Origin: Callorhinchus milii
Lineage: Eukaryota
Length of the DNA stretch: 64,000 bases
Direction of reading: 5' to 3'
Assembly: GCF_018977255.1 (NCBI RefSeq)
Contig: NW_024704742.1
Span: 37,202,001 to 37,266,000, forward strand
Made by a program: the position numbers and the translations under genes
Shown here: positions 11,101-62,689 of the stretch, piece after piece
Position numbering within the stretch: position 1 is the stretch's first letter
Layout: each line of letters starts with the position of its first letter
The notes under the pieces: model-generated
The model's input: the letters and a program-made list of their open reading frames with translations, nothing else
Databases searched by the model: none
Told to the model about the DNA's origin: nothing

Positions 11101-14100
11101 GGGGAAGTTTGTTGAGTTCAGGGGAAAGTTGGGTCACAGGATACAATAGCATTTATATCTCTTTTACATTTATTTAACAATGTATCCAGTAACCATATTT
11201 CTAACTTAAAATGTTCTTTGACTTTCGCCACTCAGAATTTCTTTGGACCTGAGTTTGTGAAAATGATCAGCGAGCCTTCTATTGCACTGGACCTTCCTAC
11301 ATCGATTCTGGTAAAGATTAACAATGAGAATCATCGCTATCTGTTGACAGCCAGATGTAATCTTGTTGCAGTTCACTCTGTGTTTAAAAACATTCATATA
11401 AGAATTAGTTATTATAATTCCGGTTACAAATTGAAACGTTTTAAGAATGAATGAGGGGAATAATGTGAAGTTTTGTGTAGAAACGAGTATGAAGACACCC
11501 ATCTGATTGGAAGTTTATATCAAGTTTTTTTTAATTGAAGAAACACATTACTGCAATGCTTTGAAGTCAAACCAAATTGACTTTTGCATAACCACTTGTG
11601 ATAGGCAAACCTCTCTACGGGCAGGGATTCTTCCCACTTGGCTCCTGTTAACCCTGCAAGCCCAAACCCTAATGGGTCAGTGGTCCTAGCTGGACAAGCA
11701 GTGGGGCACTTGCCAGCCAATGCTCTCAATGGCAAGCTATGTGATTTTAGCTGGTTAAACTCCACCAGTATCCCAATGGCTTTTGCAAATATGCGCCTAA
11801 TATCCACTGGAATTGAGTCAACAGAGTGCATGCCTCCAAGAAGAGTGCACATTCTGCTCCATGTGCAGGTGGCATTTATGTATATGGAATTCTGTTTGGT
11901 TTGAATAGTCGTAAGCATGGTGATGTGTTTATGCATGTGTTAGACACCCGGCTGACCAGAAAAATTAGAATTTTTAAAAGTGCTTTCAGGTAAGTTTAAA
12001 GCATTCACAGAGAGGTGGAGAGCTATCAGTTTGCACTCTTGACAACATGGACAGCACATTAATTGCCTGGCTTTCCCCGTAAAGCTTTGCTCCAAAGAAT
12101 CCAATGAAGAGCATCCTTTAATCCTTTAATCCTTTGCAGAAAAAAGGAAAAGGTGACGATATCCGGCGCAAATTGAACATCATGCTTCTGAGTGGACAGC
12201 GCTTAGAGTTGACGTGTGACACCAAATCGATGTGTAAGGATGTCTTCGATATGGTGGTTGCCTACATCGGTCTGGTGGAACATCACTTTTTTGCCTTGGC
12301 ATATTTAAAAGGTACATAGATAGCTGTAAAATATTAATTTAACTCTGGCCATTTGTATTTGTCTTGGGTTAACCTCCAGTTTTTCTGGAAAATATTTTTT
12401 GCAAAAACAAACAGCAATATATATATATATATGCGTAAATTTAAACCTCAACAAATGATTAAAAGCAAGATTGTTGGTAATGGAGTGTCATACTTTGGAT
12501 ACCTGGACACTATTATGTTTCTACATCCGACCAAGACGTAGATGCTGGGTTTTCAAGTAATTTTAAACAAGTATCCAGAAAGTAAATTTTCAAGAGTAAT
12601 GCTCAGGTTTGATATGATGATGGACTTTTGGTGTCCTGTAGCTCAGTGGTTAGAGCACTCGCTTTGCAAGCGAGAGACCTGAGTTCAATTCCAGGCAGGG
12701 CGAAACCTTGGGCAAGTTTCCTTACTCCACATGCCTAATAATAATCCCTCCAAAAAACAAAACAATAATAAATTGGTCATTTTCAATCTACGACTGTTTG
12801 TGGGACATTGCTGTGCGCAATTGGCTGCCGCGTTCACCCACAAATATACAGTCGATTCACTTTACAGTGTGTTCTGTGAAGCGCTTTGGGACGTCCTCCC
12901 GACGTGAAAAGCGCTATATCAAATGCAAGGATTATTATTATTATTATTATTATATTATTTTGACTAAACTTATTGAAAGCTGCATTTATCTTCCAATACT
13001 GACAGCAAATGCTAGCTGGGAACATTAGAATTTTGCAGATCAGATGTCTCAGACAAATGCTTACATTGAGTAATCTATATCACACCCACTGCTTGGGTTG
13101 ATCATTGTTCAAAAATCATCATGTATTTGGACGAACTCACACTCGTTGCTAATTTGCTGGTTCCCTCCTGCCAGCATCTTGTTTGCCAGCATCACAGTTC
13201 ACCTCACTGTGAACTGTTGGAATTTCTAATGTTTACTTTTAATATTGCAGCTGGAATTCTGGCTGTTCTCCGTACTTCTGCTTTACATCACATACTGTGG
13301 TCAATGTTAGAGCTTGCTTCACATTGACCTCTGTGATCTTGGATATGGAAGCTAGCTAGTAGTCAAAATGTGTTTTAGACAGCATTTAAACAGTGCTTCT
13401 ACGGGCATGAAGAGTCACGGTATTTAAGCTTAGACCTAAGATTTCAGCATAGCTTAAGATTCACCACCCTTCGTGCTGTGCTGTGGATTCCCTGGGGAAA
13501 TGCTATTTGCATTGCGGGCACTTTTGTTGCAGGCCATGGAGTGCTGACATTCCTACAGCATATTTTAGAAGCTTTTGAGTGTTTTGTTTGTCATGTTCCA
13601 GGGATGATATTCTAGCCAACACAAAGGTGATAGGTTCTCGGTTGCCATCTGTATTGAAACATCTCAGGGTGACTATCCTGTTGGCCTGTTCTTCAGATTG
13701 TGTTGGCTCCAAGCCATCTTCAATTTTTTTTATGCTGGGTTAATTCTTTGCTCATCAGCAGTGCAGTAATGACTACTGGGGTTTATCATATTTTGGGGTT
13801 GAAGAGGGCACTGGTCAGGAAATTGTCATTGTAAATAGCATCTAATATTGGAATAAGTGCCTCAGGACTTGAGGTGCGTTTTGTGCTCAAATATCCTGTC
13901 CTTTTTTTGTAGAAAATGAACTATTTTTTGTTGAACCTGAATTAAAATTGTCCAAAGTGGCACCAGAGGGATGGAAAGAAGAGAAGAAAAAGAACAAAAT
14001 GACTGTAAATTTCACCCTTTTTCTCCGCATTAAGTTTTTTGTAGAAGATGTCAGCTTAATCCAGTAAGTATTGCCATATCTCTACTCTGTAGGTACTTTT

Positions 14101-47100: not shown

Positions 47101-50100
47101 ACATATTATTTATAAATCATTGTATTTACTTATTCCAACCTGCTCCAAGTCCCCCGCCCGTCCTGCCCCACCATCGGAGGTCAGGCCTTCATCCATCCCC
47201 CAATCCCTTCACCTCGCTCCCTCCCTTGCCTCCTTCAAGACCCATGTCAAGACCCTCCCTTGAATCGGACCTTTGGTCACCCTCCTACCCCCATCCTCCA
47301 TTCCCTCCACCCCTGTCGATACCATATAGTCTAAGCTGACACCAATGCAATGCTGGGGATTTGCTGCACTGTCAGAGGAGCCATCCTTCTGATGAGGTTA
47401 AACTGAGCCCTCAACTGCCTGTCTAGGTGGACATTAAAGATCCCATTTCATTATTTGAAAAGAGAAGGGAGTTTCTCCCAGAGTCCTGGCAAACAACACC
47501 TCAAATAAAGAATTGGTCATTCACTTCATGGGACATTACTGTGCTCAAATTGCATTCACCCGCAAAACATACAGTCACTACATTTTACAAGTGGGAAATG
47601 CTTTGAGATGTCCTCCCGATGTCAAAGACACTATACCAAAAGTAAGGTTATTATGATTGTATTTACATGCAATTGGGACTAATTCTACAGTTCGTATCAT
47701 TTTGTTTTCTTGAACAAATAAGTGAGAATCTATTAAACAAATTGTTCACTTAATACATCAGTAGTTTTAATTAGTTAAAATTGTTTTAAGTTATTCTGAT
47801 TGGAATTTTTGTTACTACAGGAAGCAGAATTGCACGTCACTCTGAACAAGTCAGAAAAAGGGAGTCTGGGATTCACAGTGACCAAAGGAGATGACAACAT
47901 TGGCTGCTACATCCATGACGTCATCCAGGATCCTGCAAAAAGTGACGGGAGACTACGACCTGGTGACAGGCTTATCATGGTATGTATAACCAGCCAAAAC
48001 TTGGTCCAAAATAATTAGCTTAATTTGTGTGTGTGTGTGTTTTGAGAAACAAAGAAGATAGAAGGGCTAGTTATTTTCTGCCCTTTTAGTTAAATGACAA
48101 AAAGCAATAGAAAGAATCTCATATCAAAAGAAGCAATCTTTTATTTAATTCCGACACAACCCTCTGTCTTTGTGTCCTCAGTTGTTTTGGTACTGAATTT
48201 AAGGCTATGCCTCACCACCCCGCCCTGTAAGAGAGCCCTCTATGAGAGTGAAGAGTTGTCCACAATCTAATCTGTCAGTTGGTTTCATTGTTGAATACCT
48301 CAATTAAATCACCTCTTCCAACCTCCTATAATAACAATTTGGTCACTCAGTCCATGACTGTTTGAGGGACACTCCTGTACACAATTGACTGCCATGTTTC
48401 ATCCACAAAATATACAGTCAGTACATTACATTATATTCTGTGAAGCACTTTGAGATGTCTCAAAGATGTGATAAAGCGCTATATCAAATGCAAGGATTAT
48501 TATTATATTATATAAGAATAGTTAAATCCTCCAAATCTTTTGTGTTATTGTTGCTGTTGTTGTTATTAAAAACAGATTGTTTACAATTAGGATACAATGT
48601 GATTTAAGCTTTGTAACTATCTTAGATTTTTAAAGGAAATTATGATATTATAGTACAGTGTATTTGAAAAGTGAAAAAGAATATGAAATATCCTGTTTCT
48701 AAATCTTTTGAACAGTAAGGTTCTTGCAGGTTTCAAACCAATCAAAATATAATTTATTACCTGGCACTTATATATTGTGCAAATTGTAGGAATGTCTGAA
48801 GGTTGCCAAATCTGTATTGATTGATGCTAGTGTGAACTGTTTTACCAAAGCCAATCTTTCAATTCCTGTTAAAATTCTATGAAATTCTGTACGAATAGCA
48901 TCTGTTGCCATTTCAACAAAGTTTTTGTGGGAGTAAAGTTTAAAGTTTGTGTGAAGGAATTGCTTCTCTGTACATTTTTAAGTTCAGGATTTTAACGCAC
49001 ACATCATTGCTTGAATAACAAAAAAGAGTCGGATTGCAAGCCTGGCTTCCTACGAGCCAAAGCTTCCAGACATAACAAGTCCGAGCACCACCAGGGATAG
49101 AGTAGGCATGCAAAGGGGCGTTTATGTTGAATGACTCAATTTTTTGAAGCTGTGGCTTACTTGATAAGAACTTCAGAGTTTCTTTTGGCACTCTGCAATA
49201 GGTGAATGGTGTTGACATCACCAGCATGAGTCACACAGAAGCAGTGGATTTTCTTCGATCAATCCCAGATGCAGTTACTCTCGTGATTGGAAGAGTCCTG
49301 GAAATACCAGAGTTTCCAATAGAGCCAGATATGCTTCCTGCGATTACAATGATCTCCCACGAACAGGAACTGGGTAATGTTATTTTACAAGAAATATTGT
49401 AAAATAGTCATTGTAATTATGAAAAAATAGTCATTGTAATAATGAAAAAAGTCATGAGAGATTTAAGTACCTATTTTGCGTTTTCTACTGAAATCTTGTC
49501 TAGTCTTAAAAATGCTTTTTCCTGTTTTCTTTTCAATAGTATAGAATATAACTAAGTATTGTGTGCAGTAAAGATATGTATTTAAGTTAGTGCAAGCTGT
49601 TCTGCGATATAAAATGTTACTGAAATCCTCATTACCGGATGGTTAATTTACAGATTTAACATTTTTGTGAACGGCATTGTATGTTTCAAATTCTTTGTCT
49701 AACAATTATTAATATTTTATTTAACGGGGAGGTTAAGGATCATTATAGTTTAACATAACAATGTCTTTCATTCTACTGGATTATTACTTAAAAATAAAAC
49801 CAAGTTGAGATGGTGCCTGTTACTTACTGTGTGTTTTAGATAGACAGGATTGCTGCATTTGTGTGCAGTATTTTGTGTACAGTTTAACTTCAGAAAGCAC
49901 ACATGACCTCTTATTTAAATTCTACAGTACAATTTACATTCAGATAAATGTTAAAATCATTGGACAACTTCTCAGTATAAAGAACCAGTGAATGTTCTGA
50001 GCGAGTCTTCTCTATTATTTAGGCTTATCTCTGGCTGGAGGAAGTGAAACCATTTACCAGGCAATTTACATTGGTGACATCACTCCAGGTTCAGCTGCTG

Positions 50101-53100
50101 ACACAGAGGGGAGTCTGCAGCCACTGGACCTTATCCATTATATTAATGAGGTCAGCACCCATGGGATGACAACAAATGAGGCAAAGGCAGCTCTTCTGAA
50201 TGTATATCCTACCATCACCTTGAAAGCCACAAGGTATTGCAAAATCTGTGTGTTGTTGTAATTTGTAATATGTTTCTGTTTTGCAAGTTAGGTTACATAT
50301 TAATTGGTTATTATGTGGAATCCTGTAGCTCAGTGGTTGGAGCGCTTGTCTCGCAAGCAAGAGGACCTGGGTTCGATTCCTGGGCGGGGCGAAATGTTGG
50401 ACAAGTTTCCTTACTCTACACATCTCTGTTACCCTTGCAGTAAGTAAGAACCCGGTTGTTAGTCATTTGGCGGATCGCTTTTCCGGAGGTAACAATTCCT
50501 TAAAAAAAATTGGTCACTCAATCCACGACTGTTTGTGGGACACCTTTTGTATGCAATTGGCTGCCATGTTTCACTTACAAAGCATACAGTCAATTTTCTT
50601 TACAGTATATTCTGTGAAGCTCTTTGAGACGTCTTGAAGATGTGATAAGGAACTATATCGAATGCAAGGATTATTATTAGCTCAACTAGAAAGAAATTTC
50701 AAAACTGCTTTTATAACAGCTGATGAGAATTCCTTTTAGCCTGCTTTCTCCATACCACATTTATGTTTAACTCTCTTGTCAGATACAATAATTCTACACT
50801 GGATTATAGGCCAATTGTTGGACTTTCTGATTCCACCTTGGTGGGAGTTGAACTATTATTCCATTCAGGATTGAACGTGGGGTCTTTGTGGTTTGAGTAA
50901 TTAAGTGTATGAGCACAGCAGCCTAAACATTGCCCACTGAGACATCAGGGGAACTATTATTTCTATTTTGTGTTTGTTGGGTATGGAAGGGTCAATCTAA
51001 AAGCTCCCTGGATAGTAGTAATTATTATATGAGGTTTATGCCTGTATTGAGTTTGCTAAAGGAATAAAAGCCAGTTTTCCTCAGAAACAATCTGTTTACA
51101 TTCTCACTAATTGAACTGAAAAAGCCAATAAGAAAACACACCCCTATTCTTGAGACTGACTGTTCATTAACAAGGCACCATTTATGCAAGCGCAGGAATT
51201 AGACTGCAACCCACGGTTTGTCTGACTCAGTTCTGAATCAATACCACTAATTAATCCTTGGAGCATTGCATTTAGCATGGCTGCATCATGATGAAAATAA
51301 GAGATCATTAAAATAATACATCAATAAATAAAGCTGTTTTCTGACAACTGTTAGTTACTTTGATTTCATAATAATAATAATCCTTGCATTTGATATAGCG
51401 CTTTTCACATCTTCTAGACGTCCCAAAGCGCTTCACAGAACACATTTTAAAGTGAATTGACTGTATATTTGTGGGCGAACGCGGCAGCCAATTGCGCACA
51501 GCAATGTCCCACAAACAGTCGTAGATTGAAAATGACCGATTTATTATTGTTTTTTGTTTTGGAGGGATTATTATTAGGCTCCTTGTGGAGTAAGGAAACT
51601 TGCCCAAGGTTTCGCCCTCTGCCTGGAATTGAACTCAGGTCTCTCGCTTGCAAAGCGAATGCTCTAACCACTGAGCTACAGGACTCCACACTTTTTACTA
51701 AGTTTACTAAATTCCCCCTCTGATTTTCTCCTCTCCTGCTTGGGTACAGTTCAACACATATCCAGCCACCTTCACATGTTGGGGGTTTGTTTTGTGAGCT
51801 AGGCAGTGACTATGAGGAGACGACTTGATAGCTAAGTCCAATTCTTCCACAACTGTTAGCATATATCTTTGCCTGACTTTTTCTCGCTGTCTCGCTTCTT
51901 TGACTTGATACCCAGTCCTGTAGAATTCACCCTTTAGAGATCAGCTTATCTAGGCTTGAGCCATTCTGCATTGTGTTGCTGGAACTCCATCCCAGAATCG
52001 CTTTCCTCCCTCTCTACTTTCCAAATTGCCTTCTAATGTGCTTTTGACCACCTTCCTCCTCAGATTCCCCTCATCTTCAGCTCAAGCTCCCAGTCAATTG
52101 TGTGAATTTCCTTGAGATATTTTTCTGATGTGAAAAGCTTTATACTTTATGAAACTAACATGTTATTGTTCCCACATGAACAATGCTACATTATATGTTT
52201 GCAAGTTGTTGTATGAGAGCACTTCAAAAGTAGCCAAGTATAGCTATTTGACAAACTGTTCTGGATAGACTTGGCTATCATTTCTATCCCTTCCCCAGCT
52301 CAAACACTCACTGTCTAGTTCAATAAGAAGCCTGGTTGCTTATATAAGGTGATGGAGGGTGGCTAATGCCTGTGGAACTCTACCCAAACCCAGGAGATTA
52401 CAAAGCTGCTTCGAGTTGAAGCACTTTTGCAGAAATAGCACAGCATGAGACTAAAATGTTTTATTGCTCAGAATAACCAGCATGTTGAATGGTTAAAAAC
52501 TTTGAGTTGTGTTTAACCCTTTTGCATCAATCACATTTGTTTGAGGTTCACCTTCTGGAAGGATATCATTAAAAACAGGATTGAGCTTTACAACACATGC
52601 ACTGTTTTCCACTCCATGCTTTGCATTTGGATTAATCTGCTACAGCCACCATATTTCTTCCATTGTGGCTCCCTGAAGGATCTTATTGCGTGACTGAGAT
52701 TGAAATGTGATCTGAAATGAAATTATGTTTTACAGCAATATATAAATGTAATTTCTTTGTATTGTATTGAATCACGTTCAGCCAAAAAATAGAATGTCAT
52801 ATTAAAAAAAGAAAATATTAATTAAAAAATCACACTCATTTAGTGTGACATTTTCAGTAATTTACTGGCTAACAGAGAATAAGTATTGTCTTTTGGAGAA
52901 TTCTTCTCTTTCCTCCAATCCTCCCTCCCTCCAACACTGATCATTTAAATAGAAACCTGATCCAGTATTGAATTAGCAGCTACTGGGGAGAAAATTTTGT
53001 GTTTAGTTTATCCACACCTGTGCAGATGCTTAATAGTTTTTCACCTGACAATGCCTGGTCTCACTTGGTTCAGTGTGAATTGATTATGAATAGGTGTTGA

Positions 53101-56100
53101 AGCAAATAACGGTGCAATCTAGATTATGTGCCTATTCATGCCCAGGAATAAAGAAATCATTTGTCAGATTTAAATAAGATAGCTTGAACCCTTTCAAAAA
53201 TTGAATGCAAATATCTTGTTCCTCATTTGGGCTAAAGTTCAATTCTGAATAAAGAAAATAGAGCAGTTAGTATAGTAGTTGGTTTCTTAATTCTAATATA
53301 TTTCATTGCTGATGAGATGAAAAATATATTTTCCTTTCATTGAGAGTTAAGTGTTTTATGACATGCTAAAGATACAATCAGAGATTCATACTGCAGCAAA
53401 ATCAAATGAAAAATAATGATATTGAATGCTCACCCAATATTACAACAATTAAATACATATGTGATCATATTATGTAAATGTCATCATTCACTATGAATAA
53501 ATCCCTTTTATAAAACCTACAATTAAAGCATTGTTTTTTTTTAAATTTGCAGAGATGGTGAGCCAGTTGTTCCCAAAACAGTGGATTCTCTCTACAAATA
53601 CGATAAAGACAAAGATTCAAAGCTAAATAAATCTGCTGAAGTTAATGGTAAGACTTTTCGGGAATTTTTTTCTGAATTTTTTTTTCCTGAACGTTTATTT
53701 AAATTTGTTATTACATCTGACCCGGCCACCAACTTCACTCAGAGATCACCGGCCTGCTTGATGTCCCTCCCTCCTATTTCGGCCTTTCTGCCCCCACTCC
53801 CTGGAGCTCTGTCCCAGAGTCCCTCCAATTCATCTCTTACCTCATTTAAGGTCCATCTCAAGATCTACCTCTTTAACCACATTCTCAGTCATCTTTATCC
53901 ACTCTACCCCACTTGGTTCCCACCACAGCTCAGGTGCTTTCCCAGCAGTATCAAGTACCTTGTGATGTCCTCCCAACATGAAAGCTGCTATATAAATGTA
54001 ACTGTATCGTATTGAATCACATTCAGCCAAAGAATAGAATGACATACAACAAATAAAGTTAATTTGGTGAAGCACGCATAATGTCAAAACATCCCAAAGC
54101 TCTTCACCATGTTTGTCATGTATAGTGACTGTTTCTTATAAGCAATCACGGCAGCCATTTTGCACAAAGCAAACAGGTGACTTTATCTGGAGGAGTGTGG
54201 CCAGGACACTGGGAGAAACTTCCATTTGTTTCAGATAGTATCATGGGATCACTGACATTTGCTTGCACAGGCAAGTGGGAGCTTAGTTTAATATCTTCTG
54301 AAGGATAGCACCTCTGACAATGCAGCACTCCCCTAGAACTCCACTAGAGTATCAGGTAAAACCATGATTTCAAAATTTCATACCACAATCTTCTGACCCA
54401 GAGACAAGAGTGCTACCAACTGAGTCAAGCAAACACCTAGTTATTAAACAGGAATAAATGGACATAAGCCTGGACTTCGGTAGAACACAGTAAATGCATC
54501 AAAAGATTCAGGTCATAGCATAAACCTATCAATGAGTTTATCAATGTGATTCAAACAGCAATGTGTTTCGTGCTCAACAGATTCAGCAGTTTTATGACAT
54601 TGCCGCTGTGTTCCCTTAGCTTTATTTTCGAGGGTTTGTATCACTTTGGTGATTCAGCACAGATTTCTCTGACTAAATCCTGACCTGAATTGAATGCTTT
54701 TGCAGTTTCTGATTTAGACTGGGATGAAATGTAGATTTCAGTGCTTATTACAGGTAGATGAATCACTTACTGGTGTCATATTCCACACCTAATTCCAAAG
54801 GAAACTAAACACTCCTCAGCCTTCTCAGTCAGGTTAGAATTTGCTAATGTCCACCTATGTGCTTTTCAAGCTTTAGTGGAACAAAGCACTTCGTTCCTAC
54901 CAGACTGTACATGTTTCTCAAATAGCTTATAGGTGCCATAAGAACATTGCTTCACTGATTTGAACAGGTCTATTTTGGGAATGGGACTTGGGGCTAATTC
55001 TACAGTAGTGCATTATAATCACTGATACATTTGTCATCATTAGACTGTCAAAAAAGTATCCCATCTGTACCTATAATATATTCTATAAGTAGCCATATTT
55101 CAATGCCAGCTGTTTGCAAATGGCTGCGATTATTAGGGTTTCTACAAAAATTCCTAGCAGTTCCAAAATGCTATAATTTCAAATTTTGGTACTAAATATG
55201 ACTGTCTAAAGCAGGGAACATTAGACAATCAAGAAAGTGGAACCACTGCATTAGGGATGTTTGACACTTTGGATATGAGGTTTAATCTACGTCTAACCTT
55301 ATTTGTGAGATATAGATACCTATAATGGGAAAAGAAAATGGAAAGTATATCAACTTCCAGCGTTCAAATAATTGCACCTAATAGCGCAGTGTATCAACCA
55401 AAAAAGTGTCAAATAAGTAGCTAAAACTTACTCAAAAATAGTCGATCAACTTGACCTGAAATATAGCTGTTTTATGGTAAATCATCATTCATAATTCCTA
55501 CAACTTGGGTTGGGCAAAGTGAAAAGGACATTGCCTGAACCCTGGAATTCTCTTGTTTCTATTCTATGTAAAACATCCAGAATATCTAAAGACTTTTTCT
55601 TGAATTAAAATAAAATTTGACAAAGCTTCATTCTATACACGTTTCAAATTTGGCAAAAAGATGTTTGTGTTTGTGAAAAGACCACTTTCCATTTTCAAAA
55701 TACTCATCATCACCATCAAGCACTGCCAAGTCAGGTACACCACATCCTACACTGTACCTTCATCTACTGCTCCACAGACAGTCTATCTTACCACCTCCAC
55801 TTCAGAAAGCGACACTTTAGTGTAAGAGTGTGATATGTTTTTCATACCAGCCATCCATTTTGGCCTGCCTCTGAATTGCATGTGAAGAAGGACCCACGTT
55901 AATGCTACGTTGCGAGAGATTTAAAATAAGTCCAATTGTTTCTTTATGATCAGAAAAAAAACCTGAACAATGGCTATCAGAGTTAAATTTTAAAAAATGT
56001 ACTTGTGTCCTCCCTTTCACTATAGAACCATAAGTAGTTCCAGCACAAAAAGAGGCCATTTGTCCTATTGTGTCTTTGAAATAGCTACCTATATAGCCCC

Positions 56101-59100
56101 ATACACCAGCCATTTCCCCATAGCCTTTTTTATATTTCTCCTTTTCACATATTTATCCAGCCCCCCTCTTAAAAATTATATGAATTCTGCTTCAACCAAT
56201 GTTTATCTGAGCCCTGAATTCTAATCATCCAGAGAGTGTGTGTTCACAGGACAGCCCAGCATTTCATGATTTGGCATAGTTCAAACCGTTGTTATAAAAT
56301 GGTGTATCATAAAATGGTGTATTATACAGTACTACAAATGTTGCTCATGTTAGTTGGTTTCTCATGATACCATACTATAGTCTTTTTGGAGCAATTTTAC
56401 CATTTGGAATTACATAACCAGTATTGAATGAGCCTTTGTCATCGGTTGGCAGAAAATACTGTTGATTCAACCTAAAATACCTCACATTCAGACTCTCTGA
56501 AGTTAGGTGTCACCTGGCTCAGTTTGTAGCACGTTTGCCTTAGAATCGGAAGGTCATTGGTTCAATGTCCACTTTAGTATTTAAAACTTATAATCAAGGC
56601 TGACAATCTAGTGCAGTGCTGGAAAGTGCCTTCATTTGGATGAGATGGTAAACCGATGTCCCATCCTGCCTATCCAGATGGAATTTAAAGCTCCCTTGGC
56701 ACTATTCAAATTAAAAAGAGAAGGGAGTTTCTCCTGCTGTCCTGGCCAACAAATCCCCAGACAAAACAAATGTTCATTCACTTAGAACACAAAAGCATAT
56801 ATTGTGTTCTTATATGTTCATTCACTTGATGGGTGTTTGTGGAATGTTGCTCTGTGCAAATTGACTGCTGTGTTCACCTATAAATACATCCATCACTATG
56901 CTTTCTAGAAACATCTGTGAAACACTTTTTGTTTGTATGTGATAAGGTGCCATATCAAATGCATGGATTATTATTGTTCATAAAGCATAAATTTATCTGT
57001 GCTCATTGAATAAGATTTCCTTGTGGCTATGAATTCCTGAGTTCATTGCAGTTTAGGTTTTAAATGCTACTTCTTTTTGTAGGACATATCCACGGAGACT
57101 TGAGCTGTGACTCTAATCCAGTACCTGGTGTGTACATATCAGAGGTACAAATCTATATTTACCATTGTATAAATCAAAGAGAAAAACTGGAGGTTATAGT
57201 ATCTGACAAATTATGAATATGTGGTCAAAATTACAGCTAACCTTTTTTGTCTCAATTTTCAAAAGCAAATTGTATTCTGCATTAACTAATCAAACAGATT
57301 CAATCCTGAAGGTCTCTTTGACTTTTTTTTGGCAGAACTCAATTTAGATATATTGCATTTGTGATTCTAAATGTTTGTGTGTTCTGGCTACCCTTTTATA
57401 TCACAAAAGTTGTGAATCTCTTGTGTGGAAGAATACTCACAAGGCAAAGTAAAGGGAGAAGAAAGGAGTGTGATAATCATATGAAGATTTACCAAGGCTT
57501 GTTCATTGACTTGTTACTCAGTTCCCAAATAATATGAGGAAACAGTCAACAGAAGGCAGTATTCTTGAGCTTAGAAGGTATGCCAGCAACAACAATGTGT
57601 ATTTGCAGCCTTTCATATAACAGACTATTTCAAAGCACTGAATAAATGTTGTGCAAGCTAAACTAAACAGGAAATGAGATTAAAGAATTTTGATCACCTT
57701 TAGCTCAAGCTGTACAGTGCTCTGATCAGGCTGGAGTGTACATTTCTCATGACTATGCAGTGGAGCCCAGTGAAAGACTCTCAAGGTTAGAGGAGTAAAC
57801 TACACGGAACAACTGAATACAATCTGGTTTCTCGGCTTGGCAAAAAAGGCACATGAAATGCATAATAGGATAGAGCAAGTAACCCTGTATCAATACTTTC
57901 AAATATGTTAAAGTAGCAGAACAAGGGGTTGAGGTTCAGGGTGTGAAAGGAAATCTTAGGATACAAAGCAGGATCTCTTCACCCTGAGGGCAGGACATTG
58001 CATTTATTTTTAAAAGAAAGCTTAATGCTGTAATGGGAAAACAGTAGGATAGGTATTCTGAAAGGATGAGATCAAATTAATTGAAGATTTTTCTGCCTTC
58101 AAACCTGTGCTGTGATCTTCAAAAAAAAATGTGCTTTGCATGTTAGCAATACTTGTTACACAGATACTCATCATATTTTGAGGTTTAATTGTGGTCTGTT
58201 TGTGCATCTTTTCACAGTAGCTTTAGTCCTTGTTGTAAATAAATAGTAATAAAGCCTTCACACATGAGATTATTTGTTTTTGCAAATAAACGAGTTTTGT
58301 TTCCACAATATATATTGGGTTAGTATCAAAGTTCAGTGGAAATTTAATACCTTTGTTCTTCTTTGTAGAGTAATGTAACAGAAATTGATCTGCACAAACC
58401 TGCCTCAGGAGGACTAGGATTCTCCCTAGTAGGTGGTGAGAATGGTATTTATGTAAAGAGTGTACATCCGTCTGGGCCAGCTGCCGAGGATGGAAGGCTA
58501 CAAGTTGGTGACAAATTGCTCCAGGTAACAATCAACATCTGCTTTTGATATCAGAAAATCAAATGGGCAAAATTCCAGTCGGCAATCTGCGTAATATCTG
58601 GCAATGTCAGACACTAAAGAGATTTTCCTGTTTTAATCGAGCATCGCCAACCCATACCTGCAGCCCATAAATAAGCTCACTTATAAAGGAATGGATGGTT
58701 TGGGAATGTGAAACAGCCAAACAAGTTTGTCCTGACAGTGTTAGACCACCCATAACTCTGAGGAGTTTTTTTTTATTCAGCAAAAAGCTGCAACAGCATT
58801 ATCTGGTAGTCAAAAGCCACGATCTGAAGTGAACTCAGCTTCACAGATATTGACATTGAGAATGGTATCAGGTGGGGGGAGATCCACCTGAAATGCATTT
58901 GGGTAAACCATATTCAATACTTAGGAAATTTCTAACTTTAAATCATAAATGACACTCCGGTATTATTAAAAAGCCAATCATGCAATCCGTTGTTTAATAA
59001 CATTAAAATCACTCTCTTCAGATCGAGCAGTTCAATAGAGCACTGAAGGAGGAGCCTATTGGAAGGGGTCTAGTGTGCCATATTATACTATGCAAATAGC

Positions 59101-62100
59101 ACTGCTTCTTAAGGTACCACTGCCAAGTATTGTCAGGAGCGGGGCAGCTCATATATGTAATTCCAGTTTATACTGTACGTTTGGCAGGGAATCTCAACAA
59201 TTATTCATCAAGCAGACAGTGTAAGTAAATGCAGCATTTGTGACTTGGTACCCAAACATTTCTTATTAACTGGAAGCTTTGTATTTGATATAGTGCCTAT
59301 ATGTTGAAACATTTCAAATTATTTTCCCCGGTTGTAAATGCAACCAAATTAGATGGTAAATTTGAAAGTATAACTGGGGTTGCCAGTTTTCATTTTTATT
59401 ATTTTTAAATTTCAGCATATTTTATATTAATTTTTTTTTGGGGGGGGATTTTATCAATTTTTTTGTGTTCTTTGACTACAAAATGATCACCTTCTGGTTA
59501 CTATGGTTGTACGGTTTGTAAGATTGCTATGGACAACACTTTGGTGCAATACAAAGCAGCGCTTCTAAAATCACATAGGTTTTTCAGTTTTTTCCAAATC
59601 AAGGAAAATAAGACAATTTTTATCTTTGAAACCAGTAACCGGCAAGTAGTTTTATAATGATTAAGCTTTAATACAAGCTATCACTGACCAGTTCAGGAAA
59701 ACACCAACTGATAATGAATAAGACAAGATACATTTGCAGCTGACATCTGACAGATTACCAGGAACAGAGAACCACCCCTTAATAAGCCGAGCTGGTGATA
59801 TGTCATTAGCAAAAACTTGTGCAACATCAGGAAGAAAAGCTTATAATGGATATGTGCTGTTCAAGATGGAATATATAGGAACTCTCTCATAAAATAATTG
59901 ATTAAAAAAAAATTATTATTAAAAGATCATGCAATAACAGAAGAGTCCAGAAATTTAGAGGAAATATAAATATCATACTTAATTTATTTTAAAATATATT
60001 TTGTCTACCCTTTCCTCAGAGGATCAGCTTTAAGATTCTTGTTCTAAACTTCCAAATGCCGTCATGTCTTGCCCCCATCCTACTTCTGTGATATCTGTGG
60101 TCCTGCTCCTTCTACTCTGTTAACTTATCTCATGACTAGTGGGACAGTTTTCAGTCACTTTGCCCCTGCTCTCTGAAACTCACTCCACCTTAAATATCTC
60201 CACTGTGCACCCTCCCTCTCTGCTTTCAAAAGTCGTCTAAAAATCCACATTTTTGACTACCTCCTATTTCCCATTCTACTTGATCTCCCACTTCGTCACT
60301 GGGGAGCACTATGAGACTTTTCTATATGTAAGGCACATATATAATAATAATAATAATCCTTGCATTTGATATAGCACTTTTCACGTCGGGAGGACGTCCC
60401 AAAGCGCTTCACAGAACACACTGTAAAGTGAATTGACTGTATATTTGTGGGCGAATGCGGCAGCCAATTGCACACATCAATATCCCACAAACAGTCGTAA
60501 ATTGAAAATGACCAATTTATTATTGTTTTTGGTTTGGGAGGGATTATTATTAGGCGTGTGGAGTAAGGAAACTTGCCCAAGGTTTCGCCCTGCCTGGAAT
60601 TGAACTCAGGTCTCTCACTTGCAAAGCGAGTGCTCTAACCACTGAGCTACAGGACTCCACATCCTGTATATATATTTATTTATATTTATTTATAAATATT
60701 TATATATATATATAAATATATTTATAAATAAATGTATATATTTATATATTTATGAATATATAAAGCAAGTTGTTATTTTAAAAAAATCCACCAAACACAA
60801 TATTTTTTAAAAAATCACAAAAAATGTGTTCCCTTTTCATGAAGGAGAAATCCTTCATTTAATGAAATACTGAGTTGCTAAATAACAAAGAAAAGGTACT
60901 TAACCCAAAGTTCTTGAGAATTCCAAACCACCATTCAATTTTGCCCCCAAATAAATATCGTTTCAAAAACAGAATCATGTCTCTTATTATAATTTCTTGA
61001 ATCTTCTTTGTTTTCGAGTCTCGCCTACAAATAGTCACAAATGTACAGTAAATCCTGTGAAACATTTGTTGATGTGAAAAGATACTTTATCATATGCAAG
61101 GATTATTACTATTTCTCTTTCTAACCCTATATAAACCAGCAAGTGGGGGAGGGGGCACTAAAGATGTGGTGATAACTTGCCTACACCTTCCATTTTCTGT
61201 ATTCTTTAACTACAGGTAAATGGAGAATCTATAGTTGGAGCTTCCCACACTAAAGCAGTGACAACAATCCGCAAAGCCAAGGGACTGGTCAACTTAGTTG
61301 TCTCCAGGACAAAGTCCCCAGACAAAGTGAGGCCTTTGATCAGAAATGTTGATACAATGTGTTCTTTCAACAACTCACAAAGTGGAGGTAAGAGTAAAAC
61401 TCAAAACAATGTAATAATTTAATGCAATTTTATTTTAAAATTGAAAAAGGGGGAGTGAGTCATTGCCAGTTGCCACCCTTTACTTTCATCTCTGGGGCCT
61501 GAATGAAACTTGTTCCAGAATGATACAATTAAAGGTTCCTGGTGGGTAAGAAGCTGTCCATATTTCAAAATTATATATTTCAAAACATTGAATTTCCCTG
61601 GTACGTTTTAAAATGCAGAAATGAATTGGCCTGAATTTAGATAAAATAATAACTGGTGTAGATAATAATAATAATAATAATCCTTGCATTTGATATAGCG
61701 CTTTTCACGTCTTTTAGATGTCTCAAAGTGCTTCACAGAATATACTGTAAAGTGAATTGACTATATTTGTAGAAGTCAAACAGGGTGCGTTCCTCCGAGT
61801 AGAGAGTGCACATTCAGTTCCAGACTTAGGAAAATTTCCATGTGAAGGTGGCATGCATATGTGAAACTCTCAGACTGGTTTGGATACTCTTAAGCGTGGT
61901 GAAGACTTTCTGCATGGCATGTGTCGAACACCTGCTGATCATCGAAAATGGCGAAAATCAGTTTAGCTGTTGCAATTTTATTTTGAGGCACCAAATGAAC
62001 TGAAAATAGTTTCTAGCAAACTGCCGTGACTAGAATGTGCAGGTTCTTATGATTGGATCTGCTTATAATCTATATCAATTTAACATGAAGACTTCTTATA

Positions 62101-62289
62101 GGACTACTGAAGTAATCCAACCGTATCTCTGCCAAACTTGAATGTATTTTTCCCCTGCCTTATTTGATTCAGACATCACTGCCAAAGAAGCTGAAGCTCT
62201 GCAGTCCTTGTTGGATGTTATTCATCAAGAAGCCAATAAACTTTCTTGTTTCAGCCCAATAAACTCTCCAACAAAAATTCCACAGCCAG
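5096..62289 (+). CDS. PTPN13: PTPN13 (tyrosine-protein phosphatase non-receptor type 13), partial multi-exon gene: 33 internal coding exons covering FERM and six PDZ domains; 5' and 3' ends outside the window
   Basis: Exons listed below have AG/GT boundaries and matching phases, giving one open frame. Peptides such as [34 protein letters not shown] and [16 protein letters not shown] are recognisably PTPN13. Confidence 0.97.
7225..7605 (-). mobile_element. L2-clade LINE 3' fragment
   Basis: Reverse strand has the LWNS-like ORF2 end, C-rich 3' UTR, agcgct stem-loop tail and (ttg)n end. Confidence 0.8.
7745..7950 (+). mobile_element. CR1-clade LINE 3' fragment
   Basis: Matches the reverse complement of the CR1 copy at 24577-24790, including the gggctgaatggcct.....tgctcct tail. 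Confidence 0.75.
8113..8350 (-). mobile_element. tRNA-derived SINE, 3' part (subfamily of 50315 copy)
   Basis: (aat)n tail, aagcgcttcacag and gcgcacagca.tgtcccacaaacagtc motifs. Confidence 0.8.
8611..8710 (+). CDS. PTPN13: PTPN13 exon ([33 protein letters not shown])
   Basis: Strong pyrimidine tract + tag, gtgaat donor; phase 1-2 fits both neighbours. Confidence 0.85.
8960..9175 (+). mobile_element. L2-clade LINE 3' fragment
   Basis: Close inverted match to 7225-7430; stem-loop tail and (gtt)n end. Confidence 0.8.
9452..9659 (+). CDS. PTPN13: PTPN13 exon, coiled-coil region ([27 protein letters not shown]...[19 protein letters not shown]); alternative start 9455
   Basis: cagcag tandem acceptor, gtgaag donor; MLKRQEEEL and RDPLR motifs. 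Confidence 0.9.
9698..10027 (+). mobile_element. Full-length tRNA-Ala-derived SINE (about 330 bp)
   Basis: Pol III A box tagctcagtgg, B box gagttcaattcc, anticodon arm ctcgc-tttgcaa-gtgag, LINE-like stem-loop tail, (att)n end; three near-identical copies elsewhere. Confidence 0.93.
10770..11100 (-). mobile_element. L2-clade LINE 3' fragments
   Basis: Reverse-strand LWNSIP...[10 protein letters not shown] peptide typical of the L2 ORF2 end. Confidence 0.7.
11236..11310 (+). CDS. PTPN13: PTPN13 exon ([25 protein letters not shown])
   Basis: cag/gtaaag boundaries, phase 0-0. Confidence 0.95.
11615..11975 (+). repeat. Unidentified interspersed repeat family X
   Basis: Matches 836-999 (rc), 42970-43120 and 61780-61950. 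Confidence 0.7.
12140..12311 (+). CDS. PTPN13: PTPN13 exon, FERM F1 start ([29 protein letters not shown]...FALAYLK)
   Basis: cag/gtacat, phase 0-1. Confidence 0.95.
12629..12954 (+). mobile_element. Full-length tRNA-Ala-derived SINE
   Basis: Near-identical to 9698-10027. Confidence 0.93.
13913..14063 (+). CDS. PTPN13: PTPN13 exon, FERM ([24 protein letters not shown]...[17 protein letters not shown])
   Basis: tag/gtaagt, phase 1-2; not in the ORF track but translated by hand. Confidence 0.95.
15290..15735 (+). mobile_element. Older, longer tRNA-headed SINE (DeuSINE/SacSINE-like), diverged
   Basis: Degenerate A/B boxes, central ccatcctt.agat.agatgttaaacc region, same tail; related copies at 40125, 47325, 54085 and 56507. 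Confidence 0.7.
15835..15973 (+). CDS. PTPN13: PTPN13 exon, FERM F2 ([46 protein letters not shown])
   Basis: aag acceptor, gtacac donor, phase 2-0. Confidence 0.95.
17069..17221 (+). CDS. PTPN13: PTPN13 exon, FERM F2 ([19 protein letters not shown]...ETQLEFMK)
   Basis: tag/gtattg, phase 0-0. Confidence 0.95.
18630..18812 (+). CDS. PTPN13: PTPN13 exon, FERM F3 ([15 protein letters not shown]...[14 protein letters not shown])
   Basis: cag/gtaagt, phase 0-0. Confidence 0.95.
20229..20391 (+). CDS. PTPN13: PTPN13 exon, FERM F3 end ([54 protein letters not shown])
   Basis: cag/gtatgt, phase 0-1. Confidence 0.95.
20580..21135 (+). mobile_element. L2-clade LINE 3' fragment
   Basis: Degenerate [12 protein letters not shown]...LQIIQNSA...LHW coding remnant plus tail. 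Confidence 0.85.
21511..21952 (+). CDS. PTPN13: PTPN13 exon, post-FERM linker ([11 protein letters not shown]...MGRANSS...SKSYYDLSQ...RRTKS)
   Basis: tag/gtatat, phase 1-2; MGRA and SKSY.DLSQ motifs. Confidence 0.92.
22620..22945 (-). repeat. Unidentified interspersed repeat family X
   Basis: Reverse complement matches 1030-1310 and 42800-43100. Confidence 0.75.
24577..25535 (-). mobile_element. CR1-clade LINE, 5'-truncated (RT C-terminal half + 3' UTR)
   Basis: Reverse strand encodes [31 protein letters not shown]...[13 protein letters not shown]...LWNSLP; ends in gaatggcctactcctgctcct and (ttcttatg)n tail. Confidence 0.92.
26265..26365 (+). CDS. PTPN13: PTPN13 exon ([33 protein letters not shown]); alternative in-frame start 26256
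   Basis: cag (or upstream aag) acceptor, gtcagt donor, phase 2-1; RSP..R...SDSSS.ED..QAYV motif. Confidence 0.9.
27789..27845 (+). CDS. PTPN13: PTPN13 57-nt symmetric exon ([19 protein letters not shown])
   Basis: cag/gtaggc, phase 1-1; MHSSG motif shared with human. Confidence 0.88.
28346..28428. repeat. Near-perfect inverted repeat (about 34-bp arms, 13-nt loop)
   Basis: gtgcttgccagcactttttcttgcttcttttaag / cttaaaagaagcaagaaaaaagtgctggcagagcac. Confidence 0.95.
30065..30154 (+). CDS. PTPN13: PTPN13 exon, PDZ1 start ([30 protein letters not shown])
   Basis: cag/gtatgc, phase 1-1. Confidence 0.93.
30520..31560 (+). mobile_element. L2-clade LINE, 5'-truncated (RT YADD to 3' UTR)
   Basis: ORF 30614-31144 MYADDTQLY...[15 protein letters not shown]...RLDYAN...IQNSAA with premature stop; 3' tail. 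Confidence 0.92.
31715..31825 (+). CDS. PTPN13: PTPN13 exon, PDZ1 ([37 protein letters not shown])
   Basis: tag/gtactg, phase 1-1. Confidence 0.93.
32788..32913 (+). CDS. PTPN13: PTPN13 exon, PDZ1 end ([42 protein letters not shown])
   Basis: cag/gtactg, phase 1-1. Confidence 0.95.
34550..34895 (-). repeat. Unidentified interspersed repeat family X
   Basis: Reverse complement matches 1060-1372 and 43105-43170. Confidence 0.7.
36011..36468 (+). CDS. PTPN13: PTPN13 exon, PDZ1-2 linker (...[16 protein letters not shown]...[15 protein letters not shown]...RPKK)
   Basis: cag/gtaatg, phase 1-0; strongly conserved linker motifs. Confidence 0.93.
36725..36860 (+). mobile_element. Penelope-like element terminal-repeat fragment
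   Basis: cctggcctgctgagtgttcccagc...ttcagatttccagcatctgcagtatt resembles the common shark Penelope-type terminus (recalled); preceded by a ctgacga...gaaac motif. Confidence 0.55.
38092..38220 (+). CDS. PTPN13: PTPN13 exon, PDZ2 start (DSAADKTK...[22 protein letters not shown]); alternative end 38235 adds VLFGK
   Basis: tag acceptor; donors gtactg (38221) and gttttc (38236), phase 0-0. Confidence 0.95.
38450..39165 (-). mobile_element. L2-clade LINE fragment with internal deletion
   Basis: Reverse-strand [10 protein letters not shown]...DIKAWM and LWNTLP...[11 protein letters not shown]; tail at 38450-38515. Confidence 0.85.
39513..39606 (+). CDS. PTPN13: PTPN13 exon, PDZ2 ([31 protein letters not shown])
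   Basis: cag/gtaagc, phase 0-1. Confidence 0.96.
39904..39989 (+). CDS. PTPN13: PTPN13 exon, PDZ2 ([29 protein letters not shown])
   Basis: cag/gtgaga, phase 1-0. Confidence 0.96.
40125..40610 (+). mobile_element. Older DeuSINE-like SINE interrupted by a short L2-type tail (about 40240-40350)
   Basis: Collinear with 15290-15735 and 56507-56975 apart from the insert. Confidence 0.65.
40743..40926 (+). CDS. PTPN13: PTPN13 exon, PDZ2 end/linker ([10 protein letters not shown]...PVTPQCT...KDYSFVTD)
   Basis: cag/gtgagg, phase 0-1. Confidence 0.95.
41887..42101 (+). CDS. PTPN13: PTPN13 exon, PDZ3 ([19 protein letters not shown]...KKLFPGQPA...[18 protein letters not shown])
   Basis: tag/gtaagg, phase 1-0. 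Confidence 0.96.
42800..43180 (+). repeat. Unidentified interspersed repeat family X
   Basis: Collinear with 1030-1310 and 11630-11770. Confidence 0.75.
45221..45316 (+). CDS. PTPN13: PTPN13 exon, PDZ3 end ([32 protein letters not shown])
   Basis: cag/gtgagt, phase 0-0. Confidence 0.95.
45817..46217 (+). CDS. PTPN13: PTPN13 exon, PDZ3-4 linker (SLISSHSEG...[10 protein letters not shown]...KLELTS)
   Basis: cag/gttggt, phase 0-2; SRRDSYSDS motif. Confidence 0.9.
46822..47032 (+). CDS. PTPN13: PTPN13 exon, linker ([10 protein letters not shown]...[12 protein letters not shown])
   Basis: tag/gtaact; phase 2-0 bridges both neighbours. Confidence 0.85.
47821..47979 (+). CDS. PTPN13: PTPN13 exon, PDZ4 ([53 protein letters not shown])
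   Basis: cag/gtatgt, phase 0-0. Confidence 0.96.
49202..49373 (+). CDS. PTPN13: PTPN13 exon, PDZ4 end / PDZ5 start ([19 protein letters not shown]...LVIGRVLE...HEQEL)
   Basis: tag/gtaatg, phase 0-1. Confidence 0.95.
50023..50233 (+). CDS. PTPN13: PTPN13 exon, PDZ5 ([50 protein letters not shown]...TLKAT)
   Basis: tag/gtattg, phase 1-2. Confidence 0.95.
50315..50679 (+). mobile_element. tRNA-Ala-derived SINE, distinct subfamily with a longer middle
   Basis: A box tagctcagtgg, B box gggttcgattcc, anticodon loop ctcgcaa, same tail. Confidence 0.88.
51368..51689 (-). mobile_element. Full-length tRNA-Ala-derived SINE
   Basis: Reverse complement near-identical to 9698-10027. Confidence 0.93.
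53553..53647 (+). CDS. PTPN13: PTPN13 exon ([31 protein letters not shown])
   Basis: cag/gtaaga, phase 2-1; PVVP motif after PDZ5. Confidence 0.88.
54085..54430 (-). mobile_element. Older DeuSINE-like SINE
   Basis: Reverse complement resembles 15290-15735 and 56507-56975. Confidence 0.6.
56507..56975 (+). mobile_element. Older DeuSINE-like SINE
   Basis: tggctcagtttgtagc A box, ggttcaatgtcc B-box remnant, shared body and tail. Confidence 0.7.
57083..57144 (+). CDS. PTPN13: PTPN13 exon ([21 protein letters not shown])
   Basis: tag/gtacaa; phase 1-0 is exactly what is needed between 53647 and 58369. Weak sequence conservation. Confidence 0.75.
58369..58524 (+). CDS. PTPN13: PTPN13 exon, N-half of a sixth PDZ domain ([52 protein letters not shown])
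   Basis: tag/gtaaca, phase 0-0, canonical GLGF PDZ signature. Confidence 0.93.
60341..60660 (-). mobile_element. Full-length tRNA-Ala-derived SINE, adjoining the tail of an older L2 fragment (about 60010-60340)
   Basis: Reverse complement near-identical to 12629-12954. Confidence 0.93.
61216..61387 (+). CDS. PTPN13: PTPN13 exon, C-half of the sixth PDZ ([31 protein letters not shown]) + linker
   Basis: cag/gtaaga, phase 0-1; VNG...H..AV..IR PDZ signature. Confidence 0.92.
61780..61950 (+). repeat. Unidentified interspersed repeat family X, distal part
   Basis: Matches 11820-11975 (agagtgcacattc, ccatgtg.aggtggcat, ggtttg.ata.tc.taagc.tggtga). Confidence 0.6.
62173..62289 (+). CDS. PTPN13: PTPN13 exon ([39 protein letters not shown])
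   Basis: cag/gtaacc, phase 1-1; EAE..QSLLDV motif of PTPN13, confirming the sixth PDZ lies inside this gene. Confidence 0.92.
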
Positions 62290-62689
62290 GTAACCTCTTC
62301 TAAGGGTTCGGGGGAGGGGAAGGGAAATTTATTTGATGATCTTTCCACCGTCAGCCTGCTTTGCTTGAATGGAAACTGATGGTGAATTTTAGCTGCATGA
62401 AAACATTACTTTATTTTCTGTTACAAAACCAAACTGATACATCTATCTCCGATACTGCTTTTTGTAATTTGGAGCTCAAATAGAAACGGCTTTGCAAACT
62501 CCTGAGCTGTCAGTTGTTTGTATGCAGAATCCACAGCAGCCACACAGAAGCAACTATTTTACAGCAAACTCCTGTTAGAGCATCAAGCTGTTTCTTAAAA
62601 ATGTCCAAGACTCTAGACTCAATCACTCTTCTTTGTGTCCCTTTGCAACTGCCTATTTGCCTCTGTATAAAGAAATACTTCCTGATGTC

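Follow-up and report, generated by a model that had tools for sequence, protein, structure and literature searches.

PTPN13 has been studied as a five-PDZ scaffold and tumour-related phosphatase. The locus described here, in which a sixth PDZ domain follows PDZ5, raises the question whether the linker that takes this place in mammals is the remnant of such a domain and, if so, when and by what route the rest of it was lost.

The PTPN13 gene in the window

The window, by which we mean the whole 64-kb stretch of DNA that was analysed, carries the middle of a PTPN13 gene on its + strand, with FERM exons at ~12-20 kb and PDZ exons from 31.7 kb (Table 1); the N-terminal KIND and C-terminal PTP domains were not found among the exons mapped. 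We infer a PTPN13 of the cartilaginous-fish type, because exon order agrees with that of sawfish PTPN13 at identities of up to 90%, and because the FERM exon is nearer to PTPN13 (64-68% against full-length PTPN13-named matches, one unnamed eel model included) than to FRMPD2/PTPN20 (55-58% against named FRMPD2-type matches).

Table 1. Exons and domain segments around PDZ4 to PDZ6, in window coordinates
Feature	Coordinates	Strand	Evidence
PDZ4 first-half exon, 159 nt, frame-preserving, cut at the same place as PDZ6	47821..47979	+	Pfam and exon phases
Exon with most of PDZ5	50023..50234	+	
Linker exon 1 after PDZ5, 95 nt	53553..53647	+	
Linker exon 2, 62 nt, phase-0 end	57083..57144	+	61-nt gap between flanking pieces in contig X3/8 fits
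PDZ6 first-half exon, 156 nt, phase 0-0, 52 aa, GLGF loop	58369..58524	+	AG/GT flanks, open frame
PDZ6 second half, 31 aa: strand, helix B with class I His, last strand	61216..61308	+	
Whole exon: PDZ6 second half plus 26 linker codons, 172 nt, phase 0-1	61216..61387	+	
Next exon, conserved QSLLDV-type helix used as downstream anchor	62173..62290 (3' end approximate)	+	

The QSLLDV-type helix encoded at 62173-62290 is kept from coelacanth to placentals, with a predicted helix at pLDDT 86-88, and is missing from the sawfish and eel models; contigs of runs X2 and X3 stop at the exon that precedes it. This exon may be alternatively spliced, and the helix is a candidate binding motif adjoining the phosphatase. 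One short interspersed repeat, of very high run depth, has copies at 60335-60660 and 61670-61760 and near 9700-10020, 12660-13000 and 51370-51690, and an AT-rich simple repeat occupies 60663-60760.

PDZ6 is a spliced, two-exon domain

Searched with the Pfam PDZ profile (PF00595), the first exon covers profile positions 1-51 (E 4e-11) and 61216-61308 covers positions 52-80 (E 6e-4), so that the two halves abut exactly. Contigs of three of the four runs, from two studies, pass straight from the first into the second PDZ6 exon across a 2.7-kb intron; that these runs are RNA is a guess of the software, and none is on record as RNA. No skip join appeared among the joins listed, which were filled by rows derived from repeats and were 185 rows short of the full table; contigs lose rare forms, so this has no bearing on skipping in this species. 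With abutting Pfam halves and contigs that join the two exons, the sixth PDZ is real and spliced. The preliminary description had stated that the exon at 58369-58524 is 156 nt long, of phase 0-0 and losable without a frameshift, and this proved correct: it has AG/GT flanks and 52 open codons, and its phase follows from the full codon on which 57083-57144 ends and the full codon with which 61216 starts.

The domain has the carboxylate-binding (R/K)-x-G-L-G-F loop, its GLGF lying in the first exon, and full Pfam coverage. In structure prediction, made on the coelacanth orthologue, the domain takes the six-strand, two-helix fold of a PDZ (pLDDT 94-96). Histidine at helix B position 1 is described as a mark of class I PDZ binders (PMC7138185). 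The window has it, as do 42 of the 43 tabulated labels from non-amniotes; it suggests that the intact domain, situated next to the phosphatase, probably binds C-terminal S/T-X-hydrophobic motifs in the class I manner. At position 58436, one contig of run X3 (depth 93) has A for G, which would put aspartate in place of a glycine shared by all 29 sequences of alignment A2; this is probably an allele.

Age of PDZ6 and its fate in PTPN20/FRMPD2

In a tree, the 157 PDZ domains taken from 30 PTPN13-like proteins fell into six clades, one for each position. The PDZ6 clade (25 domains, support 0.981) contains the last PDZ of non-amniote PTPN13, that of hemichordate, crinoid and abalone (mollusc) proteins, and all PTPN20/FRMPD2 sequences with a whole last domain, including bird and marsupial. 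Because last PDZs of vertebrates, hemichordate, crinoid and abalone join in this clade, PDZ6 is ancestral and older than the vertebrates, and the five-PDZ PTPN13 of textbooks is a derived amniote state. Five-PDZ proteins of the invertebrate type end in PDZ6 and are without PDZ5 at that position (P0004, P0011, P0014, P0013); what they lack is PDZ5, not PDZ6, so five PDZ domains were reached separately from amniotes. The second PDZ of abalone falls in the PDZ5 clade, possibly an artefact.

The paralogue PTPN20/FRMPD2 has PDZ6 in common with PTPN13 and shows the same skip junction in a caecilian model. It has been published with five PDZ domains, in the account given by van Eekelen et al. 2012 (PMC3335823), whereas we find six in skate, paddlefish, electric eel, coelacanth and bird. 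Lineages with fewer have retained PDZ6 and miss PDZ4, frogs also PDZ5. PDZ4 is absent from lungfish, amphibians and marsupial and present in coelacanth and birds (P0600, P0015, P0170, P0160, P0185, P0209), a patchiness that implies repeated losses. A PDZ4 relic is clear in PTPN20 of Geotrypetes, where 0 of 2000 shuffles matched it, and weak in Macrotis (90 of 2000); none was found in Protopterus (564/2000 shuffles matching) or Pleurodeles (1354/2000). The PDZ6 first half is absent at one and the same junction in a Geotrypetes FRMPD2 isoform and a Poecilia model (P0155, P0596, P0205), and since these models share it, the position of the PDZ6 intron seems common to both paralogues.

Recognition of a PDZ6 relic in amniotes

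We surveyed 353 PTPN13 proteins under 113 species labels, taken from the best 120 of 1622 and of 1107 matches together with cluster members, a biased sample whose placentals are chiefly carnivores and horses. They are predicted proteins, not genomic DNA, from which amniote exon boundaries and exon fate were inferred. Human, primate, neognath bird, snake, tuatara and lungfish PTPN13 lay outside the sample; humans, as placentals, most likely carry the same relic as the species described below.

Ungapped identity to the 31 residues of the window's second half is 21-26 in teleosts, 16-20 in frogs and 13-16 in salamanders. It is 13-18 in turtles, 15 in crocodilians, 12-15 in birds, 9-10 in monotremes, 8-12 in marsupials and 5-11 in placentals, where the mean of 9.5 makes typical about 10/31, the value that the preliminary description gave for the human linker; the 3-5/31 of squamates results from an internal deletion of ~11 residues. 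The placental segment aligns without gaps in 32 of 35 labels, the others (two Myotis and beaver) having small deletions. In the proteins retrieved the segment lies ahead of the QSLLDV-type motif, where the preliminary description had placed it, and the graded decay sought in intermediate taxa is found, running from frogs through turtles, crocodilians, birds and marsupials to placentals.

Linker shuffles seldom reach the raw identity observed in horse (2 of 3000), dog (0), elephant (0), armadillo (20) or camel (3); for the beaver relic 1880 of 3000 do. An ungapped profile was trained on sequences of ray, teleost, coelacanth, frog, salamander and the window alone, caecilian excluded. With this profile the relic was the best window of the linker, matched by 0 of 2000 shuffles, in 13/13 turtles, 2/2 crocodilians, 3/3 birds, 6/7 marsupials and 31/35 placentals, counts that are not independent because the labels are related. 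The result was weak in monotremes (68 and 39 of 2000 shuffles) and beaver (101/2000), and the ungapped profile failed in five of five squamates and two Myotis; in all of these, indels break the register. Podarcis, Pelusios and Chelydra, whose models are without the start of the relic, were dropped from this test.

In pairwise comparison turtle, crocodilian and bird relics are clearly PDZ6-like; those of armadillo, camel and Sturnira are no nearer to PDZ6 than to other PDZ halves, and that of opossum ties with PDZ4. Assignment of these weak mammalian relics rests on position and on the bridge that turtles and crocodiles provide. A match of 10/31 would be weak by itself; position and the reptile bridge carry the case, and on this comparison the mammalian linker segment appears to be the decayed second half of ancestral PDZ6. 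Long and short forms of the placental linker differ by 17 residues right after the relic (P0326, P0328, P0436, P0340), the fox having both, which suggests that an internal splice donor arose more recently where the domain used to end.

Distribution of the PDZ6 first half

Among the matches listed, with P0528, P0530 and P0536 left out, the first half is present in 76 of 101 non-amniote PTPN13 proteins; by label it occurs in ray (1/1), teleosts (4/4), coelacanth, frogs (27/33) and salamanders (3/3). A motif search found it in 0 of the 252 amniote proteins listed, which represent 70 labels (15 turtle, 2 crocodilian, 3 ratite bird, 6 squamate, 2 monotreme, 7 marsupial and 35 placental), and a first-half HMM detected no trace in amniote linkers (best score -2.3 bits). 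The GLGF loop and first strands are missing from all 252 linkers, so the amniote relic does not qualify as a PDZ. Such consistency over 70 labels makes an artefact unlikely. Lysine or glutamate stands directly before the relic junction in 66 of 67 amniote labels, and a dog model carries a deletion that ends exactly at this junction; both are at most indirect signs of an intron there.

Because the first half is absent from every amniote protein examined, its loss appears to date to early amniotes, not to mammals. The preliminary description had mammals losing the first exon and keeping the second as a decaying linker. The decayed half and the single missing, frame-preserving exon agree with our findings; the mammalian timing has to be given up.

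An optional exon in amphibian gene models

Models both with and without the first half exist for Xenopus laevis, X. tropicalis, Ranitomeya, Aquarana, Ascaphus and Pleurodeles. Judged by these gene models, the linkers of the two forms are identical in each of the six amphibians except for exactly 52 residues, the exact exon-size difference of a cassette exon. Six further frog labels have the short form only, one of them read-assembled (P0271). In the amphibian short form the upstream exon meets the second half exactly where amniote proteins enter the relic; in both, the exon joined straight to the second half is the counterpart of 57083-57144. An exon that is already optional in amphibian models points to fixation of an existing skip form. 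Loss by deletion of a single exon, as first suggested, is thus right about what is missing, namely one exon, and incomplete as a mechanism.

The caecilian Rhinatrema has a PTPN13 without the first half (P0283, one low-quality model), which calls for at least one more loss or a bad model. Three helix positions are changed in this protein whose residue class is kept in all 42 other non-amniote labels, and these hints make an independent loss of the first half possible.

Rate of decay of the second half

Tree lengths were compared in 41 chosen taxa, squamates left out. Among non-amniotes they came to 3.80 for the PDZ6 second half, 4.17 for the PDZ5 second half and 10.56 for the upstream linker; among amniotes, to 5.21 for the relic, 1.34 for the PDZ5 second half and 5.22 for the linker. 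The amniote/non-amniote ratio is 1.35 (0.91-2.02) for the relic, 0.30 (0.18-0.47) for the PDZ5 half and 0.48 (0.39-0.63) for the linker, and that of the relic exceeded both others in 100 of 100 column resamples. The second half changes at domain-like speed in non-amniotes and at linker-like speed in amniotes.

Pairwise identities, from which Podarcis, Pelusios, Chelydra and Chrysemys were dropped, are 0.35 for the relic, 0.38 for the linker and 0.83 for the PDZ5 half between turtles and placentals; the corresponding values between frogs and salamanders are 0.56 (PDZ6 second half), 0.31 and 0.61, and within turtles 0.89, 0.87 and 0.98. As the turtle relic is kept no better than the linker, its close match reflects slow evolution. 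In a residue column table that excluded five gapped labels, helix B loses its residues in steps, the basic residue in all amniote clades tabulated, His and Val in crocodilians and mammals. Structure prediction for turtle PDZ5 plus relic gave no secondary structure in the relic, in a model whose PDZ5 control is itself of low confidence (block pLDDT 27-58). As in domain atrophy, core elements are gone from the relic and what is left is homologous to the full domain; its rates speak for relaxed constraint.

Proposed history and alternatives

The best explanation of these patterns, and one that we consider likely, is that an ancestral PTPN13 had six PDZ domains, that its first-half exon was made optional, and that the skip form was fixed in amniotes while the second half drifted. 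An ancestral PTPN13/PTPN20 protein would have had six PDZ domains, all of which the window gene retains. The frame-preserving exon of 52 residues would have turned optional in early tetrapods or earlier, as judged from gene models, and the skip form would have become the only form on the amniote line, given its absence from all sampled amniote proteins. From what is known of the fold, a second half without the GLGF loop and first strands should be unable to form a PDZ. It would have been retained as the opening part of an exon that holds the frame to the phosphatase domain, and would have drifted at linker speed since, slowly in turtles and more quickly in birds and mammals, squamates having also deleted an inner part; the paralogue PTPN20/FRMPD2 would have kept PDZ6. 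The loss was thus probably made by fixing a skip form that already existed, and was presumably single on the amniote line.

The same relic could have been left if a constitutive exon was deleted from the genome at one stroke on the stem of the amniotes; skipping in amphibians would then be of separate origin or annotation noise. A 0-0 exon can be removed without a frameshift in this way too, no skip model is listed for Rana (0/4), Lithobates (0/8) or Bufo (0/3), and partial domains are reported to be mostly artefacts, often of splicing or annotation (PMC4443539). However, skip models exact to the residue occur in five frogs and a salamander and in the read-assembled P0271, and the same skip is seen in the paralogue of a caecilian, which leaves abrupt deletion conceivable and, in our estimation, rather unlikely.

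We think it unlikely, too, that the first half was lost more than once in amniotes, for example in synapsids and sauropsids separately, each time from the optional exon. In its favour, the relic hardly changed along the stem of the amniotes (0.08; 5.21 in the crown), turtles retain 13-18/31 identities, and the caecilian case hints at loss happening readily more than once. Yet the upstream linker shows a similarly small stem change (0.11), turtles are slow-evolving, with a relic no better kept than the linker among them (0.89 and 0.87), and a single loss is the simplest account of 0/252.

A new job for the relic, whether as a folded extension of PDZ5 or as a short motif for binding, in place of passive service as a linker, is improbable. 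Its first three residues and the hydrophobic positions of the last strand persist in placentals, within which identity is 0.83 for the relic and 0.77 for the upstream linker; but the persisting first codons fit a splice-site constraint, across amniotes the relic evolves no more slowly than the linker beside it, no amniote clade tabulated has kept the basic residue of helix B, and squamates have lost about 11 residues of it. That the mammalian similarity is chance, or PDZ6 a fish-specific gain, is hardly credible: true PDZ1-5 halves do score 9-13/31 against the same query, so that 10/31 in a single pair says little, but frogs, turtles, crocodilians, birds and marsupials form a continuous series at one junction, and PTPN20 and invertebrates have PDZ6 orthologues.

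Fixation of an optional skip form may be one instance of a wider habit. We put forward, tentatively, that PTPN13/PTPN20 repeatedly lose PDZ domains through one predictable route: a 0-0 first-half exon is made optional and later disappears, so that a fossil half-domain stays behind on the exon that follows. PDZ6 of PTPN13 in amniotes, and probably in caecilians, and PDZ4 in some PTPN20 would be examples. The amphibian skip could then be a regulated switch that removes a substrate-docking PDZ beside the phosphatase, amniotes would be frozen in the off state, and PTPN20 might have taken over the PDZ6 ligands.

Comparison with known systems

PTPN13, or PTP-BL or FAP-1, is described as a KIND-FERM-5 PDZ-PTP protein with five PDZ domains (PMC6615252, PMC3335823). 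The window holds the same gene, as FERM and PDZ1-5 exons match in order. Compared with this five-PDZ protein, orthologues outside the amniotes, those of Xenopus and teleosts among them, carry one more PDZ immediately ahead of the phosphatase. Since PTPN13 of Xenopus and teleosts has an extra, ancient PDZ of class I type by its catalytic domain, results and rescue constructs may not transfer to mammals; the ligand of PDZ6 is a testable question. A CDD profile for the last PDZ of zebrafish-type Ptpn13, 'PDZ5_DrPTPN13-like', may describe the same domain type; such a profile would state neither the sixth or ancestral status of the domain nor the amniote half. The literature that we searched, with subscription papers and supplements outside its coverage, contained no account of a sixth PTPN13 PDZ or its relic.

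Lineage-specific exon loss after conversion from constitutive to alternative splicing has reportedly been documented by Wang et al. 2014. The turning of old exons into alternative ones, and exon loss, are reviewed in PMC6695735; compared with the exon losses treated there, the exon lost from PTPN13 is half a domain, and its ancestral, optional and lost states are all found in living species together with graded decay. Domain atrophy is defined as a large loss of domain core elements (Prakash and Bateman 2015, PMC4432964), with exon loss and alternative splicing as likely routes and internal cases given as very rare. The cases described in that account stay folded and functional, whereas the PTPN13 relic evolves like a linker and in mammals is past Pfam-type detection, which makes it a fossil and not a partial domain still at work. 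The mechanism belongs to a known kind, and the PTPN13 case is unusually well graded: it is a rare example of a single domain that living species show in its intact, optional, lost and decaying states, and their coexistence allows the turning of a folded half-domain into a linker to be measured directly.
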